This document shows, piece after piece, positions 26,066 through 40,749 of a stretch of 42,571 nucleotides of DNA. A program made the position numbers and the translations under genes. Source of the DNA: Colwellia polaris (GTDB lineage: Archaea; Nanohalarchaeota; Nanosalinia; Nanosalinales; Nanosalinaceae); NCBI GenBank assembly GCA_047617785.1, contig JBLGBK010000008.1:1-42571 (forward strand), given 5' to 3'. Positions within the stretch are counted from its first letter, which is position 1. The number at the start of each line of letters is the position of its first letter. Below the pieces are notes generated by a model. That model ran no database searches, was not told the origin of the DNA, and worked only from the letters and a program-made list of their open reading frames with translations.

Positions 26066-27178
26066 CTACTCTGCAAGCCTCTTACTGATCCCGTAATAGG
26101 AGTTTCTCAGCTTCTTCAAGGTCTCTACTTCACACATCTCGTTTTCTCCGTGAACAGTTTTCTGGTTGGTTCCAAGTTCGATGAAAGGAGTATCTTTCTC
26201 AGCGAAGAAACGTCCGTCGCTAGCACCGCCATCAGTAATTTCCTCTGGTCTCTCACCACGGACCTCTTCAAGAGCCTTTACAGAGGCTTCCCTGAACTTC
26301 TCATCCGATAGCTCAAATGCTCCTCCGTGATCTTGTTCAACTTCTACACGGAACCCACATTCAATTCCTTCTAAAGCCTTCTCCACATCTTCCACTATCT
26401 GATCTATATTCTGTGAAGGCAAGTAACGGATATCCATACCTATCTCCAGTTCTCCAGGCACGCTATTGTATGTCTGTGTAGTTTCAACCCGTGTAACTTC
26501 GTGACTTGGGTCGGGAAGCGTTCCATTGTTCTCATAAGTTAGCTTCATGTTGTTGAGACGATCTAGAACGTTCGGAAGCTCTTCCATAATGTTAATCTGT
26601 GCGAGATCTGCGCGGCTGGCGTGAATTCCTTCACCTTCCAACTGTATATTGAGCCATACAACTCCGCGCGTCCCTACCTGAACATTCATGTCGGTGGCTT
26701 CGCCAACTATCGCGTAATCAAAGCCTTGCTCTTCTCCATAGTATTTATCTACTAGTGGCTGCGAACCTTTGAATCCACCGATTTCTTCATCTCCTGCTGC
26801 CATGAGTACTGCTCTTCCATTGAAATCGCTGTCTTTATGTAGGTCAATGAATGCTTTAACCTGGGCTGCAAAAGCTGCCTTCATGTCTGAGGCACCACGT
26901 CCGTACAGTTTTCCATCTTCAATAACTGGTTCAAAAGGTTCTGTGACACTCCACTGTCCTTCAGGCTCTACAACATCCAAGTGACCGTTTAGACAGATAG
27001 ATGGTTCGCCTTCACCAGTCTCTGCCGTCAAGTTGTAGACTCCATCGATTTCGTGTATATCTGCATCAATTCCGTGTTCTTCCAGTAATCCTTTCAAATA
27101 CTGAAATATCTCAGGTTTTTCAACTGGTGAAACGGTTTTGTACTTCATAAGTTCTCGTGCTACTTCTTCTGTCTTCAT
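26066..27178 (-). CDS. M20 metallopeptidase/amidohydrolase (ArgE/DapE-like)
   Basis: GHLDVV, GRGASDMK, DEE, GE, HAS, GGASDG, HGENE. ATG 27178 lies 1 nt after the upstream stop. Confidence 0.92.
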   Translation of the reverse strand: MKTEEVARELMKYKTVSPVEKPEIFQYLKGLLEEHGIDADIHEIDGVYNLTAETGEGEPSICLNGHLDVVEPEGQWSVTEPFEPVIEDGKLYGRGASDMKAAFAAQVKAFIDLHKDSDFNGRAVLMAAGDEEIGGFKGSQPLVDKYYGEEQGFDYAIVGEATDMNVQVGTRGVVWLNIQLEGEGIHASRADLAQINIMEELPNVLDRLNNMKLTYENNGTLPDPSHEVTRVETTQTYNSVPGELEIGMDIRYLPSQNIDQIVEDVEKALEGIECGFRVEVEQDHGGAFELSDEKFREASVKALEEVRGERPEEITDGGASDGRFFAEKDTPFIELGTNQKTVHGENEMCEVETLKKLRNSYYGISKRLAE

Positions 27179-27179
27179 T

Positions 27180-29078
27180 TTAGTCTGCACCTGCGGTTGG
27201 ACGTGCCTGTGACTGGAATGCGTCCTGTGGAGTTTTTTCATTAGCTAGTTTTTCAAGTTTCTCTGCTTCACTTCCCTCGTCAACATATCCAAGCATCTCT
27301 TCCTTGTAGGAATCAGCAAACCAGTCCACAAACTCATTGTACTCCTTTTCAAAATCCTCTTTACTGTAGAAACCTGGTTTAATATCTTTTGAATTGTAGA
27401 GATCTGATGTATGGTCAGCAAACTCGCTTAAGCTATCAAATTCGCTTTCTAGATAGCCTTCAAAGCTGTCATATGGCTCACCAACATCATCAAGAATCAG
27501 TTCGAATGAGTAAGGCATCTCTCCGCTGAAAGATTCGCGTACACCTTCAGCAAGAACATCGACCAGATCCTCTTCATATATATCTCCTACGGTTGCACCG
27601 CTTGGCAGCTGTGCATCAAGCCCGTTACGTTTTGCATCTTCACGGAATTCAAGAGCATTCTCAGAATCCAAACCGTGCTCATGAAAGACATCCTGTACAT
27701 CTTCATATACATGCATCAGGCTTTTCTGAGTGACAAGTGCTTCATAGCTTCGAGGGCTATTGCTGAATGAGCGGAATTCTACAATTCCATCATTCTTGGG
27801 TGCTATATCCGGTCTTACGAATGTGTTCTGGAATGCAAAGTATCCGGTCTGGTCATCGTTTCCAATTCCAGCAAGCTCTTCAAACGAATCTCTGTCTAGA
27901 TCACTATGATCGACCTTCACAGGTTTCATAACTTCTTCTCCGTTTTCCTCAACAAGAACTTCCCCCAGGTATTGCTGATCTTTCGCAAACTGTTCGAAAG
28001 TAACTATTGACTCCTCTATGCCGGAGATTCCAGGCATAACCCACGTTGTATCTTCTCCGTATTCTTCTTCAAATGTGCCTTCTGGCTGATATGTGTTCTC
28101 ATCCAGTACCTGAATGTCTGAAGCATCGATCTCTGGGGAAAGAATCATGGGTCTCTCCATAACCATCTCAATATAGTCTTCATGATCCTCTAGATCGGAG
28201 AGATCCTCTATGTTACCATAATTTTCATTGGTTGGAAGCGCCTCGTCAAGTACGTCACCCCAGCGTTCTGTGCTGTTTCTAAGTACTGCTGGTGAGTTAG
28301 AGACGAATAGGTCATATAGTGCATCTCTACTACCCTCTGCTACTGCTTCGTATAGATCGTCTTCATACTCTTCAAGAATGGGGTCATTTGCGAACAAGGC
28401 GTCGACTCCTGGTACAACGTCTAGCATGCTTGGCTTGTCTCCACCGTTGAAGAAGTTGTGGAAGAACTCCTCTACTGTTTTATCGTCTCCTACGGGCGTT
28501 CCGGTGTTGAGTTGCGTTGATGCGGGCCACCCCATTGCGTCGAATCTTTCTCCATGTCTGCTTCTTAAACCGGTGTAGCGAGCTTTTGGCCTCCAGTTTC
28601 TATCTGCATAGCCGTCTGTGGCGAAATCTGGCATTATCCCGTTTTCGTACGCTACGTGCCCTTCTGGAAGGTTTTCATCCCTTATTGTTCTTAGGTTTTC
28701 TGTTCTGAATATCATGTCAGCAGGGTTCTGGAATACTTCTGTCGCTACTTCGCTCTGTGCTGGATGGTAGTCGGTATCGATTTCTGCCTTGAAGTTCTCA
28801 TGTTGTTGGAATTCTTCATCTTCAACCTTTACTCCTAGAAGATGCTTTTCCCCTCCTATTTCACGTTCTTTAGGTTCTGCTCCTTCTTCATCTACAATAT
28901 TCTGTAGAGCTTTCTCTGCGTCCTGATTGTCGATCGGTTCGTCTTCCAATTTGCGTATAATATCTTCGATTTCTGCTCCTACGTTTGCTAGTTCGTTTTC
29001 TGTGAATGCTTCGCGCCAGAGATCTCCCAGTTTGCGGGTTAGGCCTGTGTTCTGCTGTTTTTGTTGACTTGCTGACAT
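27180..29078 (-). CDS. Glutamate-cysteine ligase-fold (GCS2/GshA-like) carboxylate-amine ligase, paralog 1
   Basis: GAEIE, PKARY, STQLN, ALFANDP, YIEMVMERPM and VEFR match, in order, the plant/alphaproteobacterial GshA motifs (PKGRY, TVQVN, ALFANSP, YVDYALDVPM, LEMR). Confidence 0.7.
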   Translation of the reverse strand: MSASQQKQQNTGLTRKLGDLWREAFTENELANVGAEIEDIIRKLEDEPIDNQDAEKALQNIVDEEGAEPKEREIGGEKHLLGVKVEDEEFQQHENFKAEIDTDYHPAQSEVATEVFQNPADMIFRTENLRTIRDENLPEGHVAYENGIMPDFATDGYADRNWRPKARYTGLRSRHGERFDAMGWPASTQLNTGTPVGDDKTVEEFFHNFFNGGDKPSMLDVVPGVDALFANDPILEEYEDDLYEAVAEGSRDALYDLFVSNSPAVLRNSTERWGDVLDEALPTNENYGNIEDLSDLEDHEDYIEMVMERPMILSPEIDASDIQVLDENTYQPEGTFEEEYGEDTTWVMPGISGIEESIVTFEQFAKDQQYLGEVLVEENGEEVMKPVKVDHSDLDRDSFEELAGIGNDDQTGYFAFQNTFVRPDIAPKNDGIVEFRSFSNSPRSYEALVTQKSLMHVYEDVQDVFHEHGLDSENALEFREDAKRNGLDAQLPSGATVGDIYEEDLVDVLAEGVRESFSGEMPYSFELILDDVGEPYDSFEGYLESEFDSLSEFADHTSDLYNSKDIKPGFYSKEDFEKEYNEFVDWFADSYKEEMLGYVDEGSEAEKLEKLANEKTPQDAFQSQARPTAGAD

Positions 29079-29113
29079 AGTTCTTGTTTTGCCACCTTTA
29101 ATTGGTTCTTGGT

Positions 29114-29199
29114 GGAGTATAGAAACAGGACTGTATATCTTGTACAGTCTTTTTGAGGTCCTGCCCCGTTTCTACACTCCCGGATTAGCGAGGACCTCA
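29114..29199 (-). promoter_or_regulatory. Structured mRNA leader with interleaved stems (attenuator or pseudoknot candidate)
   Basis: 16-bp stem 29165-29180/29114-29129 with two G.U pairs on the minus strand; 9-bp stem 29191-29199/29154-29162; 7-bp stem 29143-29149/29129-29135. Confidence 0.7.
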
Positions 29200-29200
29200 T

Positions 29201-29293
29201 TCAAACAATAATTGAGATAATAATGATAGCGATAAGGCTAACCGCACTACTTGAATCAAGTGCCGGTACTTCTGGGTTAGCCGTTCTGAACAT
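29201..29293 (-). CDS. 30-aa Ile-rich leader peptide or micropeptide MFRTANPEVPALDSSSAVSLIAIIIISIIV
   Basis: ATG about 32 nt downstream of a TTTAAAA box (29325-29331); too short for the ORF track. Confidence 0.5.
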   Translation of the reverse strand: MFRTANPEVPALDSSSAVSLIAIIIISIIV

Positions 29294-29357
29294 GTTGGAC
29301 AAAACACTTTTTGTCAGCTAACGGTTTTAAAGGTTTTTCTAGATGGTGGTTGAAGAT

Positions 29358-31229
29358 TCAGCGGACAGTTTGTTTCTGCCCGCCTACAATTAGGTCTTCG
29401 GGTTCGTAGAGTACATCTCCTTCGATATAATCTACACCATGTTCTTTCGCCATCATTTCTCCGGGGGTTACTCCGTTTTCTATCAACTTAGTCATCTCGG
29501 ATCTGTACTGTTCGCCGCTGTACAATTCTCCTGTGCTCATCTCATCAACGCCGTCAGCAAGAATGTCTATTAATCCTTCTTCCATGTTAGTTCCTAACCA
29601 TGCATCTTGAACTGTGATATTTTCCTCTTCGTTGATTGTGTATTGAAGACCGTTGTTTTCCAGGTAGTTCTCATCATTTTCATGATCTGCGTACACGCCG
29701 TTCACTCCGAGACGAAGGTCTTTAGCATGGGAGTTTGAGATGCCCAGGTTTTCAGATGCGAACTCCTGGATTTCACGCCATCTCCGGAAAGCTCCGATCT
29801 GTGTCGCTATAGCTTCGTTTCTGAAAGGATTGTTGCCAACATCTCTGTATTCTAGAGCCATGTCTGCAGGTCTCTCGCGCCATGGTTCCCAGACTGCAGT
29901 TGTGTCTGCTTTGAACTGTTTCTTTCCTTCTTCCTTGAAAGCTTCGTCGTCCATATCCGGGAAGATTTCTTCGTCACGATAGTCAACTACGCCAGTATAT
30001 TCTGTGGAGTTGCCTTCTTCATCGAATACTATTACTTCGCCGCCGAACATCTCCCTTTCGATGAATTCCTTGAATGGCATAATGCTGTCTTTGTCCTCAA
30101 GATCCCAGTTCTCCTTTCCTACTCGTATTAATGCATTATCATCTTCATCTATGAATTCGACTCTGTCAGAAAGGACATCGTAGTCTTCGTCTTGATCATA
30201 GTCTTCATCGTCCACGACTTTGACTTTTGAAGCTTCAACCTGTGCGAAATTCCATTCAGAGCTCGCTGAGAAGTCTTGATCTTCTTCAATGCTTTCTATA
30301 TTTGCGAGTGCTGGTGAGAATCCTGCTTTACTATTCTTAGTTATGTAATCGCCGGGTTCTTCTTTGTTGTTCTGTCCCTGGCGATCCCAAAGTGTAAGGA
30401 AGCTTTCGTCGTATGCCTTATCCCTTCCGTTCAGAGTCTCTATAACAGTTTTTCCTTCATGGTTGTACATAACAGGTGAGCTCATGAATGGTCCGTAAAA
30501 TAGAGGGCTGAGCGCAGACATTCCGATTTCGTCTTGCCCTCCTTTGAATTCGCTCAACCATTTATCTACGTCTACTTCTTGATCATGCTCTTCGTCATAT
30601 ATCTTTGGGCGCATAGTGACCTGTATTGATCCGGTTCCTGCGACTGGCTCTACGTCGTAGGTGTTTCCGAACATTTCGTACTTTGGTTCTTGGAAGAAGT
30701 GTTCGCGTCCTACGGTGTCGTAGAAATTACCGGTCATCATACGGGTTAGCATCCCTTGTCTTCTGAACTGGACATCGTCTCTTGGCGCGGAGTCAAGAGT
30801 TGTCTGCTCTACCTGATTAAGGTTCTTGAGGGCATCGTCTACTGTGTTAACGATGCCGGTTACATCTTCTTTTTCAGGGCCTACATCGTATTCGCTGGCT
30901 CCTTTATATTCGTCGAATTCGAGTTCTACAAGCTTGACGATGTTGTCTTCATGCGTGTCAACTCTTTCCGTATTTATTGCCTGTTCAATTTCTGCTAGTC
31001 TCTGAAGGTGTTCTAAGCTGAAATCGCTGTGCACAGGGATAGCATCTGCAGATATTGGTTTTTCTACAGGATGTTCTTCTTCAACACCTATCATATTGTG
31101 GTGTTGAAGGTTTTCGCCTGTATCTCTGTCGCTGCTCCCTATCTGTCTGCGTTTCTCTTCTGCAAGTTCCTCGTTGATGTCGTCCCAGTCGTATTTGCTG
31201 AATCTTTGGGAATCAGAGCCGGCAGACAT
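29358..31229 (-). CDS. Glutamate-cysteine ligase-fold (GCS2/GshA-like) protein, paralog 2
   Basis: GVEEE, PKY, GSIQV, FMSSP, GRD, LEYRD, GVTPGE. ATG 31229 follows an AGGTG SD. Confidence 0.65.
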   Translation of the reverse strand: MSAGSDSQRFSKYDWDDINEELAEEKRRQIGSSDRDTGENLQHHNMIGVEEEHPVEKPISADAIPVHSDFSLEHLQRLAEIEQAINTERVDTHEDNIVKLVELEFDEYKGASEYDVGPEKEDVTGIVNTVDDALKNLNQVEQTTLDSAPRDDVQFRRQGMLTRMMTGNFYDTVGREHFFQEPKYEMFGNTYDVEPVAGTGSIQVTMRPKIYDEEHDQEVDVDKWLSEFKGGQDEIGMSALSPLFYGPFMSSPVMYNHEGKTVIETLNGRDKAYDESFLTLWDRQGQNNKEEPGDYITKNSKAGFSPALANIESIEEDQDFSASSEWNFAQVEASKVKVVDDEDYDQDEDYDVLSDRVEFIDEDDNALIRVGKENWDLEDKDSIMPFKEFIEREMFGGEVIVFDEEGNSTEYTGVVDYRDEEIFPDMDDEAFKEEGKKQFKADTTAVWEPWRERPADMALEYRDVGNNPFRNEAIATQIGAFRRWREIQEFASENLGISNSHAKDLRLGVNGVYADHENDENYLENNGLQYTINEEENITVQDAWLGTNMEEGLIDILADGVDEMSTGELYSGEQYRSEMTKLIENGVTPGEMMAKEHGVDYIEGDVLYEPEDLIVGGQKQTVR

Positions 31230-31364
31230 GCGAAGCACCTATTGTGAAAGAGCTGTAGCTAGAAGATTTTGAATTAGTGTGAGAAGTGTCGGTACTTGGG
31301 TAGAACGCGTCCACCCTTCGTTGTCATAGACATACCATACGGGTTAGGACTTAGAAGTTTTAAA
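31230..31364 (-). promoter_or_regulatory. Promoter and structured leader with uORF (31274-31333, MSMTTKGGRVLPKYRHFSH)
   Basis: TTTAAAA box at 31358-31364 about 25 nt before the uORF ATG; hairpin 31298-31316; homologous to the proS leader. Confidence 0.6.
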
Positions 31365-31551
31365 TGTTGTTCAGATCTATAGGGGTTCTTGTTTTGAGGC
31401 AAACCAGCTATATAAATCTAGCCTGACCTATTATTGGATAGGGCGTCTTACAGGTCTTCAAAGGTTTTCAGGCCTGTTTGAGGTTATGCTCTTTTACAGG
31501 AAGAATAAGTTTCTGAACTATAATACAATCAAAAATGGAGGATAAAGAATA

Positions 31552-32208
31552 ATGGTTGAACAGATGCAACAACAGCAAAAGAAGGAAATGGAAGAATTCG
31601 AAACCGGTACTACAACACTAGGACTGACAACAGAAGAAGGCGTAATCCTGGCAGCAGACAAAAGAGCTGCATTAGGGGGACGACTAGTCAGCAACAAGCA
31701 TGCGCAGAAGGTCTTCGAACTTGACGATACGCTTGGCCTGACAATTGCAGGAAGCGTAGGAGACGCACAGAAGATCGTCCGATTAATGAGAAGCCAGCTG
31801 AACCTGCACAAACTGGAGACAAAAGAGCTCTCAGTTAAAGGCGCAGGAACACTGCTCTCAAACATTCTGCATGGTAACAAAATGATGCCGTTCATGAACC
31901 AGTTCATCCTCGGAGGAGTAAGAGAAGACGAAGGCGGAATCGTATACAGTCTTGACCCTGCAGGAGGGCTAATGGGTCACGAAGACTACACATCAACAGG
32001 TTCCGGCAGCCAGATGGCATTCGGAGTACTCGAGGATAACTACGAACAAGATATGGATCACGAAGAAGGAAAGAAGGTTGCATCCAGAGCAATTCAGGCT
32101 GCAATGGAGAGAGACACGGCATCCGGAAACGGAATCATGGTTGCAGAGATCACAGAAGATGGTTATGAAGTAGTCAGTGATCAAGAAGTTGAATCCAAGC
32201 TGAAGTGA
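31552..32208 (+). CDS. psmB: Proteasome beta subunit
   Basis: Propeptide then TG|TTTLG; AADKRA, AGSVGDAQ, TGSGS, RDTASG. Confidence 0.97.
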   Translation: MVEQMQQQQKKEMEEFETGTTTLGLTTEEGVILAADKRAALGGRLVSNKHAQKVFELDDTLGLTIAGSVGDAQKIVRLMRSQLNLHKLETKELSVKGAGTLLSNILHGNKMMPFMNQFILGGVREDEGGIVYSLDPAGGLMGHEDYTSTGSGSQMAFGVLEDNYEQDMDHEEGKKVASRAIQAAMERDTASGNGIMVAEITEDGYEVVSDQEVESKLK

Positions 32209-40625: not shown

Positions 40626-40749
40626 GGTCCACTAGCTCAGGGGTTAGAGCACCGTCCTTATAAGGACCTCACACAGAAAAATAGTTTGATCCTGTGTGTT
40701 GCCTCCATGAGTGAGGCGGCGGTCCCGGGTTCGAATCCCGGGTGGACCA
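40626..40749 (+). tRNA. tRNA-Ile(UAU) with a 51-nt intron at 37/38 (intron 40663-40713)
   Basis: Acceptor stem GGTCCAC/GTGGACC+A; D arm GCTC/GAGC; anticodon stem CCGTC/GGCGG with loop CT-TAT-A|A; T arm CCGGG-TTCGAAT-CCCGG; BHB-like helix CTTA/TGAG. Confidence 0.88.

Follow-up and report, generated by a model that had tools for sequence, protein, structure and literature searches.

A conserved isoleucine-rich mini-gene and competing RNA helices as a candidate ribosome-gated leader of a ligase operon in a nanohaloarchaeon

The element considered here lies on contig JBLGBK010000008.1 (assembly GCA_047617785.1) of a nanohaloarchaeon, a DPANN symbiont of haloarchaea. The window, meaning the whole stretch of DNA that was analysed, is 42,571 nucleotides (nt) long, and the element occupies a 279-nt spacer on its minus strand, between two long genes for acidic proteins (Table 1). 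The spacer holds a promoter box, an upstream open reading frame (uORF) with an isoleucine-rich tail and, close behind its stop codon, a set of overlapping helices that reach the Shine-Dalgarno (SD)-like sequence of a gene for a predicted carboxylate-amine ligase. The reading frame and the helices are conserved among relatives, the helices covary, and the two principal ones overlap and give folds of nearly equal energy. We tentatively read the spacer as a cis-regulatory leader, in which the progress of ribosomes on the mini-gene and a bistable RNA together gate the operon of the ligase and an M20 peptidase; we put the chance of this slightly below even. Sensing of Ile-tRNA specifically is the most likely input, a proposal that we regard as possible but doubtful.

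The ligase occurs in 10 of 70 genomes of the phylum (E<=1e-10) and at 13 metagenome loci. The core set comprises 14 distinct leaders (L002-L006, L010, L014, L015, L017, L020, L022-L024, L026; L numbers denote leader loci and G numbers genomes, G000 being the genome of the window). L021, which duplicates L017, L025, a near-duplicate of L024, L018, which is cut, and a G060 scaffold with N runs were omitted; where 17 leaders are counted, three weaker relatives are added to the 14. An ATG-started uORF of 27-33 codons is present in all 14 core leaders (27, 28, 29 in three, 30 in five, 32 in three, and 33 codons), and its length changes in frame. The N-terminal half of the peptide varies freely, while the tail has the form (A/L)IIIIS(I)I(V/A), followed by the stop, and carries synonymous changes. 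The core tails keep four to seven Ile, which are rarely exchanged although the identity of the neighbouring ligase drops to 36-38% across the set. In another family, whose ligase is 32-35% identical (L007, L008, L011), no such reading frame was found. The first-pass annotation, made from the letters of the window, had described the promoter element, the 30-codon uORF with its Ile tail, three stems (A, B and C) and a pair of complementary motifs, CCACC and GGUGG. All of them lie on the minus strand where it had placed them, and conservation of the uORF and stems, on which its proposal of an attenuator-like switch depended, extends from the 14 core leaders to the three weaker relatives.

In G000 the uORF ends IAIIIISIIV, with seven Ile in the last ten codons (four ATT, three ATC). 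At the genome's 6.6% Ile, the probability of at least seven Ile in ten codons is 5.7e-7 per window of ten, and only one of the 155 TATA-preceded short ATG reading frames of the genome, the leader uORF itself, has seven of one residue in ten codons. The RNA is also more stable than expected: the fold of the 279-nt spacer has an energy of -69.5 kcal/mol (z -2.71, equalled by 2 of 200 shuffles), and that of the 132-nt segment after the Ile run -37.4 kcal/mol (z -2.92; again 2 of 200). Such features are unlikely to have arisen by chance. A TTTAAA box precedes the uORF in 14 of 14 core leaders, its first T lying 31-38 nt from the ATG, and 33 nt in nine of them. In archaeal promoters such a distance from TATA to ATG places the start of transcription on the ATG or just ahead of it, and leaderless mRNA is usual in haloarchaea. 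Because of this spacing, taken with what is known of archaeal promoters, the leader mRNA is probably leaderless.

Helices are found at homologous places throughout the family. A stem of 8-12 base pairs (bp) within the uORF, P0, is present in 17 of 17 leaders, and in the core leaders its 5' arm begins 5-15 nt past the A of the ATG. The P0 arms differ from leader to leader yet stay complementary, as in GGCTAACC/GGTTAGCC, GACTGACC/GGTCAGTC and ACCAATCA/TGATTGGT. In 16 of 17 leaders stem A begins 1-6 nt past the stop and its 3' arm adjoins the 5' arm of stem B, so that the juxtaposition of stop and stem noted in the first-pass annotation holds across the family; the A/B topology of L006 was not captured by the script. 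L022 and L023 carry A and B with wholly different sequences (GCTCCTC/GAGGAGC). Stem B is 16 nt long and 88% complementary, with 14 Watson-Crick pairs and two further positions (alignment columns 42/103 and 51/95) that are, as had been claimed, G-U pairs on the minus-strand RNA only. Hairpin C varies among relatives and is conserved in neither sequence nor length.

Covariation was counted in a MAFFT alignment of 11 leaders, from which L006, L022 and L023 were dropped as misaligned. Helix A is 100% paired, with compensatory changes at five of eight pairs, and helix B 97.7% paired, with compensatory changes at 4 of 16. The observed covariation score was reached by 0 of 500 shuffles, and when partners are shifted by 1-3 columns only 37-55% pair; since the leaders are related and themselves supplied the structure, these shuffle controls overstate the significance, a caution to be held against the reading that we favour. 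In the downstream helix CCACC:GGUGG, 87.9% of alignment cells are paired and one pair is compensatory. It is seen in the closer relatives, where the proposed overlap of CCACC with the 3' arm of B and its pairing with GGUGG are borne out; the anti-SD is not recognisable in L022, L023, L034 and L035. The SD-like GGTGG itself matches the complement of the 3' end of the genome's 16S rRNA, and GGTG occurs within 20 nt upstream of 78 of 660 long reading frames in the genome, versus a background of 3.6%.

The claim that A and B exclude each other stands on more than their interleaving. When A is enforced, its hairpin extends in 11 of 11 folds, the loop after A pairing with the 3' part of the B 5' arm. 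Because the extended hairpin uses this arm, A and B compete for the same nucleotides. In 10 of the 11 leaders the minimum energies with A forced and with B forced lie -2.4 to +5.1 kcal/mol apart; L014 is an outlier at +16.2 kcal/mol, probably because the constraints fit it poorly. The unconstrained minimum-energy fold is of the A type in 7 of 14 leaders and of the B type in six, with L006 (G023) adopting neither. Enforcing A leaves the SD unpaired with a probability of 0.00-0.26, and enforcing B with one of 0.11-0.52; in 8 of the 11 the gain under B exceeds 0.1. In classical attenuators overlapping helices are arranged 1:2, 2:3, 3:4. The leader shows the same arrangement, with anti-SD:SD as the last helix, and the first of its mutually exclusive helices lies close enough to the uORF end for a ribosome there to reach it.

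These features suggest the following sequence of events. Transcription would start at or a few bases before the uORF ATG, giving a leaderless mRNA, and ribosomes would translate the 30-codon frame, in which most of the last ten codons are for Ile, in the wobble-read form ATT. Because the stop lies so close to the A 5' arm, stem A would be covered or weakened by a ribosome that had reached the last Ile codons or the stop. With A blocked, the 5' arm of B would be free to pair with its 3' arm, and formation of B would remove part of the anti-SD, leaving the ligase ribosome-binding site more open. With no ribosome at the end of the frame, the extended A hairpin would form first, since it is transcribed first; the 3' arm of B would then stay free and CCACC could pair with GGUGG. 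The output would most likely be the initiation of ligase translation. From the uORF stop to the ligase ATG, 16 of 17 leaders contain no stretch of four or more T, so the leader is not a transcription attenuator of the ilv/thr type. The likeness to such attenuators that had been drawn in the first-pass annotation thus survives in the 1:2, 2:3, 3:4 topology and fails for want of a U-run terminator and of an Ile or Thr pathway gene downstream.

Table 1. Features of the leader and adjacent genes in the window (all positions in window coordinates)
Feature	Position	Strand	Details
B-recognition element (BRE)/TATA promoter element	29325..29339	-	GAAAAACCTTTAAAA; TTTAAAA at 29331-29325
uORF, putatively leaderless	29201..29293	-	ATG 29293, TGA 29203-29201; 30 codons encoding MFRTANPEVPALDSSSAVSLIAIIIISIIV
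Hairpin P0, 5' arm (inside uORF)	29275..29282	-	GGCTAACC
Hairpin P0, 3' arm	29236..29243	-	GGTTAGCC; stops just short of the Ile run
Ile-rich tail codons (IAIIIISII)	29207..29233	-	central ATT ATT invariant in 14/14 core leaders
Stem A, 5' arm	29191..29199	-	begins 2 nt past the uORF stop
Stem A, 3' arm	29154..29162	-	9 nt, 9/9 complementary to the 5' arm
Stem B, 5' arm	29163..29180; paired 29180-29165	-	3' end abuts stem A 3' arm
Stem B, 3' arm	29129-29114	-	overlaps anti-SD CCACC
Hairpin C	29149-29143 with 29135-29129	-	7 bp
Anti-SD CCACC	29115-29111	-	complementary to GGUGG
SD-like GGTGG	29092..29096	-	14 nt upstream of ligase ATG; first G 18 nt from the A
Ligase gene (putatively controlled)	27180..29078	-	632-amino-acid acidic protein; ATG at 29078
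M20 peptidase gene	26066..27241	-	Pfam PF01546, E 3.1e-36; overlaps the end of the ligase gene
Upstream gene, 626 amino acids	29358..31238	-	weak ligase paralogue; BLASTP 25% identity over 201 amino acids, E 8e-8

The signal that such a leader would read is less clear than its architecture, and the codons of the tail bear on it most directly. Ile is encoded in the 14 core uORFs by 70 ATT, 32 ATC and 6 ATA, and in the ligase genes of the same loci by 70 ATT, 62 ATC and 127 ATA. All long reading frames of this genome use ATT for 27%, ATC for 34% and ATA for 39% of Ile, and the genes for the elongation factors EF-1alpha and EF-2 have 20 ATT, 66 ATC and 1 ATA. The uORFs shun ATA like highly expressed genes, yet favour the wobble-read ATT that those avoid, so the synonymous choice seems to be under a selection of its own. 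Selection at synonymous sites would fit a device that acts through decoding speed, and a function of the peptide does not predict it; an RNA-level cause of the bias, such as the need for an unpaired tract, may be an alternative. A search of the genome with aragorn found a tRNA-Ile(GAU), among only 26 tRNAs in all. It may be, and here too we lean against rather than towards it, that a genome-reduced amino-acid auxotroph gauges its charged tRNA-Ile, or its supply of branched-chain amino acids, by its own ribosome, and so switches an amide-ligase/peptidase operon. The leader would then control the use or salvage of amino acids, not their synthesis, and leaders in other genera would have been retuned to Leu, Val or Phe before other ligase paralogues.

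The weaker relatives, sought with a covariance model of the leader region (R1), bear on the role of Ile. Two of them, in the distant genera of G067 (39 bits) and G050 (31 bits), retain a reading frame with leaderless spacing, P0, A and B. The G067 leader precedes a different ligase paralogue, which shares 47-50% identity with the gene that G002, G008 and G024 carry upstream of the leader. The leader of G050 precedes a 503-amino-acid frame, for which tblastn found no relative among the collected loci, hhalign against the ligase alignment gave a probability of 0.3, and there was neither a Pfam family nor a usable protein-atlas hit. Since these two leaders precede other genes and have altered tails, the leader appears to behave as a module placed before different genes of the cluster, its tail composition drifting. 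In G063 (L033) the helices are present and a hydrophobic-tail frame is found without a clear ATG. A hit in G016 (32 bits) was set aside as a doubtful or decayed copy; only a 48-amino-acid frame follows it and its tail carries Glu.

Several observations weigh against a ribosome-gated leader, and in particular against one that reads Ile. The tail of G067 is GIAILLIILVV (4 Ile, 3 Leu, 2 Val) and that of G050 is LFAILLFALIVG (2 Ile, 4 Leu, 2 Phe), so that the whole family keeps hydrophobicity in its tail, not Ile. The question raised in the first-pass annotation, whether orthologues preserve Ile or only hydrophobicity, thus has a divided answer, Ile in the core set and Leu, Val or Phe in the distant genera, which goes part of the way towards the refutation set out there. 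A device that did no more than count codons would need neither the invariant Ser within the run nor the fixed tail length. The genome (completeness 96.55%) yielded no match to the IlvD or IlvE family, where searches of control genomes gave 14/14 and 13/14 matches, and an operon of a ligase and an M20 peptidase has no evident link to isoleucine; what lies downstream is thus not a recognised gene of the amino acid in the run. One G060 copy, on the scaffold with N runs, has a 1-nt deletion that shifts the uORF frame. As to the switch itself, B and the anti-SD helix share only 2-4 nt. Equilibrium folding of 16 leaders with ribosome-sized masks over the central Ile codons, the last of the Ile codons or the stop gave no consistent change in SD accessibility, so that the folding check advised in the first-pass annotation, as run at equilibrium, did not bear out the expected opening. 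A ribosome footprint extends about 12 nt 3' beyond the first base of the A-site codon. By this geometry stem A would lie out of reach of a ribosome at the central ATT ATT; it would be partly covered from the last Ile codons and fully from the stop. The switch may therefore have either polarity, starvation turning the operon on or shutting it off.

The drift of the tail invites a different explanation, that the uORF encodes a functional hydrophobic micropeptide with a polar N-terminus and a C-terminal aliphatic segment of about 14 residues. The peptide could be membrane-associated, or be a partner or substrate of the neighbouring amide ligases, and the RNA helices would serve only to stabilise the mRNA or to tie translation of the ligase to that of the mini-gene. 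We consider this, the main rival, rather unlikely. The hydrophobic tail is the one peptide feature common to 17 of 17 leaders, the Leu/Val/Phe tails included, and Ser is invariant within the run of the 14 core leaders; the fold family of the ligase includes enzymes that act on small proteins (PafA/Dop). ATA is avoided in highly expressed genes also, but the enrichment of ATT is opposite to the ATC preference of the elongation-factor genes. Moreover, Ile is seldom swapped within the core set despite the divergence of the ligase, the N-terminal half is unconstrained except at P0, the peptide matches no Pfam family, and a relay of three helices with two near-isoenergetic states exceeds the needs of simple coupling. 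At about 13-15 residues, Ser or Gly among them, the hydrophobic stretch is on the short side for a helix that spans a membrane. The first-pass annotation had offered a related alternative, a sorting-signal-like membrane peptide marked by EVPAL; this motif is absent from all 16 other peptides and the alternative falls with it, although the tail may still serve as a short anchor.

The C-terminal part of the peptide might instead act in the exit tunnel as an arrest sequence, a small molecule such as a substrate or product of the ligase holding the ribosome at the stop and so melting stem A. TnaC and the fungal arginine attenuator peptide are analogues. We think this improbable. A peptide of 27-33 residues would fit wholly in the tunnel at termination, conservation is concentrated in its last 12 or so residues with the N-terminus free, and the start of stem A, 1-6 nt past the stop, falls in the region covered by a terminating ribosome. 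However, the tail contains no known arrest motif, its composition varies in distant genera, and we know of no precedent for an all-aliphatic arrest peptide. Arrest also leaves the selection on synonymous codons unexplained.

That the A/B region is a ligand- or protein-binding 5' untranslated region, a riboswitch-like pseudoknot in which A and B stack and the reading frame is secondary, is very improbable: the gap between the B 5' arm and the A 3' arm (0 nt in six leaders, -3 to +1 nt in 13 of 17) has the geometry of coaxially stacked pseudoknot stems, both helices covary and the G060 copy keeps its nucleotides despite the frame shift, but the ATG, the frame, the stop position and the pattern of synonymous changes are all conserved, the loop that separates A from B shows little conservation, the extended A hairpin takes nucleotides from B in all 11 folds, and none of the Rfam families approaches its threshold. 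In the Rfam searches only a tRNA elsewhere in the window reached the gathering score and nothing did so for the leader; with the cutoff relaxed to E<=10, the best hit in 28950-31600 had 19.9 bits, against a gathering score of 90. Programmed frameshifting or readthrough at the uORF stop was rejected, as there is no slippery heptamer and the spacer lengths of relatives do not differ by multiples of three.

The closest published system is that of the leaderless poly-Cys short reading frames of mycobacteria, on which stalled ribosomes block a structure that conceals the following gene's ribosome-binding site (Canestrari et al., 10.1101/834739). The two have in common an operon that opens with a leaderless short reading frame as its first cistron, a series of codons for a single amino acid in that frame, and a fold decided by ribosome position (as we infer for the present leader), with a translational output and no terminator. 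Bacteria and Cys are replaced here by a DPANN archaeon and Ile, and the genes of cysteine metabolism by a ligase without known link to Ile, in an organism apparently without Ile synthesis. There are many loci per genome in mycobacteria and one here. The run also ends here two codons before the stop, with the first helix beginning only past it, and a ribosome waiting at the central codons would therefore leave the helix unmasked.

Leader peptides also govern the enterobacterial transcription attenuators trpL, ilvL of ilvGMEDA, ivbL, thrL and leuL, and control by a leader peptide that the ribosome reads is a textbook mechanism in bacteria. Like these, the present leader has a short reading frame with the candidate regulatory codons clustered near its end, a stop beside the first of three overlapping helices, and non-preferred synonymous codons in the run. 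Unlike them, it ends in an anti-SD:SD helix in place of a hairpin-plus-U-run terminator, it has an archaeal promoter, a probably leaderless start and an extra conserved hairpin, P0, inside the reading frame, and its downstream gene lies outside the pathway of the amino acid in the run. In the translational attenuation of ermC and cat, and with the arrest peptides TnaC, SecM and MifM, a ribosome held on an upstream reading frame remodels the RNA and exposes an SD, as is proposed here, and conservation is likewise concentrated in the C-terminal part of the peptide; the present leader differs in having no known drug, ligand or arrest motif and a tail that drifts in distant genera. The small hydrophobic proteins and type I toxin-like peptides of prokaryotes are a further class for comparison. 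They resemble the uORF product in their size of about 30 residues, a hydrophobic segment and a structured mRNA. Here, however, synteny with the ligase operon is strict and there is no mobility, the hydrophobic stretch is short and at the extreme C-terminus, and synonymous codons appear to be selected. Literature listings turned up no archaeal leader-peptide attenuator, although listings alone are no proof of absence.

The comparative support for a gated leader is unusually clean, combining a conserved reading frame at leaderless spacing, three helices that covary, two folds of nearly equal energy and apparent selection on synonymous codons. If the leader does gauge tRNA-Ile, Archaea would have a leader-peptide attenuator open to experiment, from which one could learn how the supply of amino acids is sensed by a symbiont unable to make them; the lineage has cultivated members, which makes experimental tests feasible. 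If the peptide is the functional part, the uORF would be a conserved archaeal micropeptide gene tied to the ligase-M20 operon. The leader would also give a first handle on that operon, which is specific to nanohaloarchaea, unstudied, and composed of GCL (glutamate-cysteine ligase)-like enzymes and an M20 hydrolase.

The genome from which the window comes has 787,359 bases in 22 contigs. The product of the gene behind the leader has no sequence match in Pfam, NCBIfam or PDB. Its AlphaFold2 model, built on a 28-sequence alignment, has a mean predicted local distance difference test (pLDDT) score of 88.5 and a predicted template modelling (pTM) score of 0.90. With this model the top Foldseek match is 2gwc, a plant glutamate-cysteine ligase (E 1.1e-11), followed by E. 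coli GshA and YbdK and, more weakly, by the Pup ligase and depupylase PafA/Dop. Because of these structural matches, the protein is predicted to be a carboxylate-amine ligase of the GCL fold. Judged by position, the ligase and M20 peptidase genes probably form one operon, and their synteny is retained in the orthologous loci. The leader promoter sits in the spacer 3' of the upstream paralogue gene. Two such adjacent genes are annotated GshAB in cultivated nanohaloarchaea, in which most amino-acid synthesis is absent, according to one report (PMC10266531). The ligase is itself poor in Ile, with 25 Ile in 632 codons in G000 versus 6.6% genome-wide, and its orthologues in G008 and G024 have 11 Ile in 640-641 codons. 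The leader element is present once in the genome, and a second copy or mobile repeat was accordingly rejected. Contigs from four DNA sequencing runs, which are fragmented, were identical over 29040-29380, and no variants were seen among them.

Some of the relatives have unusual arrangements. The G060 scaffold (G060:C7, L031/L037) holds two leader-ligase units split by N runs, of which one resembles G061 and the other the G002-type genomes, and it looks like a join of two populations; the 1-nt deletion lies in its first leader copy. At L004/L041 (G024) and at L017 an extra frame of about 220 codons stands between the upstream ligase paralogue and the leader. It carries an in-frame TAG in G024 and a TAA in L017 and may be a decaying gene; its identification as a gamma-glutamyl-cyclotransferase was dropped, neither piece matching a Pfam family. 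In G067 (L038) a frame with an AstE/AspA-type (succinylglutamate desuccinylase/aspartoacylase) domain, a second amidohydrolase in the operon, comes after the ligase gene and before the M20 gene. Elsewhere in the window, the tRNA match at 40626-40749 on the plus strand, at 124 nt, is longer than a plain tRNA and probably contains an intron.

A second conserved short reading frame, apparently leaderless, lies at 31274-31333 on the minus strand, with a TATA box near 31366, before the first ligase gene of the cluster; with the leader described above, both ligase genes of the cluster therefore carry conserved mini-genes. It reads MSMTTKGGRVLPKYRHFSH in G000, MSVAITGGRVLQDEIHIYG(H/Q)F in G001 and G002, MRSTSMKGGRVLPGQVRI in G024 and MRHASTKGGRVLPGKVRI in G008, and in G062 the motif is doubled. 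A DNA core, GGGTGGACGCGTTCTAC, is common to these frames, which at L039-L043 lie upstream of the ligase paralogue. In G063 (L033) a reading frame with a doubled GGR motif stands directly upstream of the hydrophobic-tail frame, so that this genome has the two leader types side by side, or fused.

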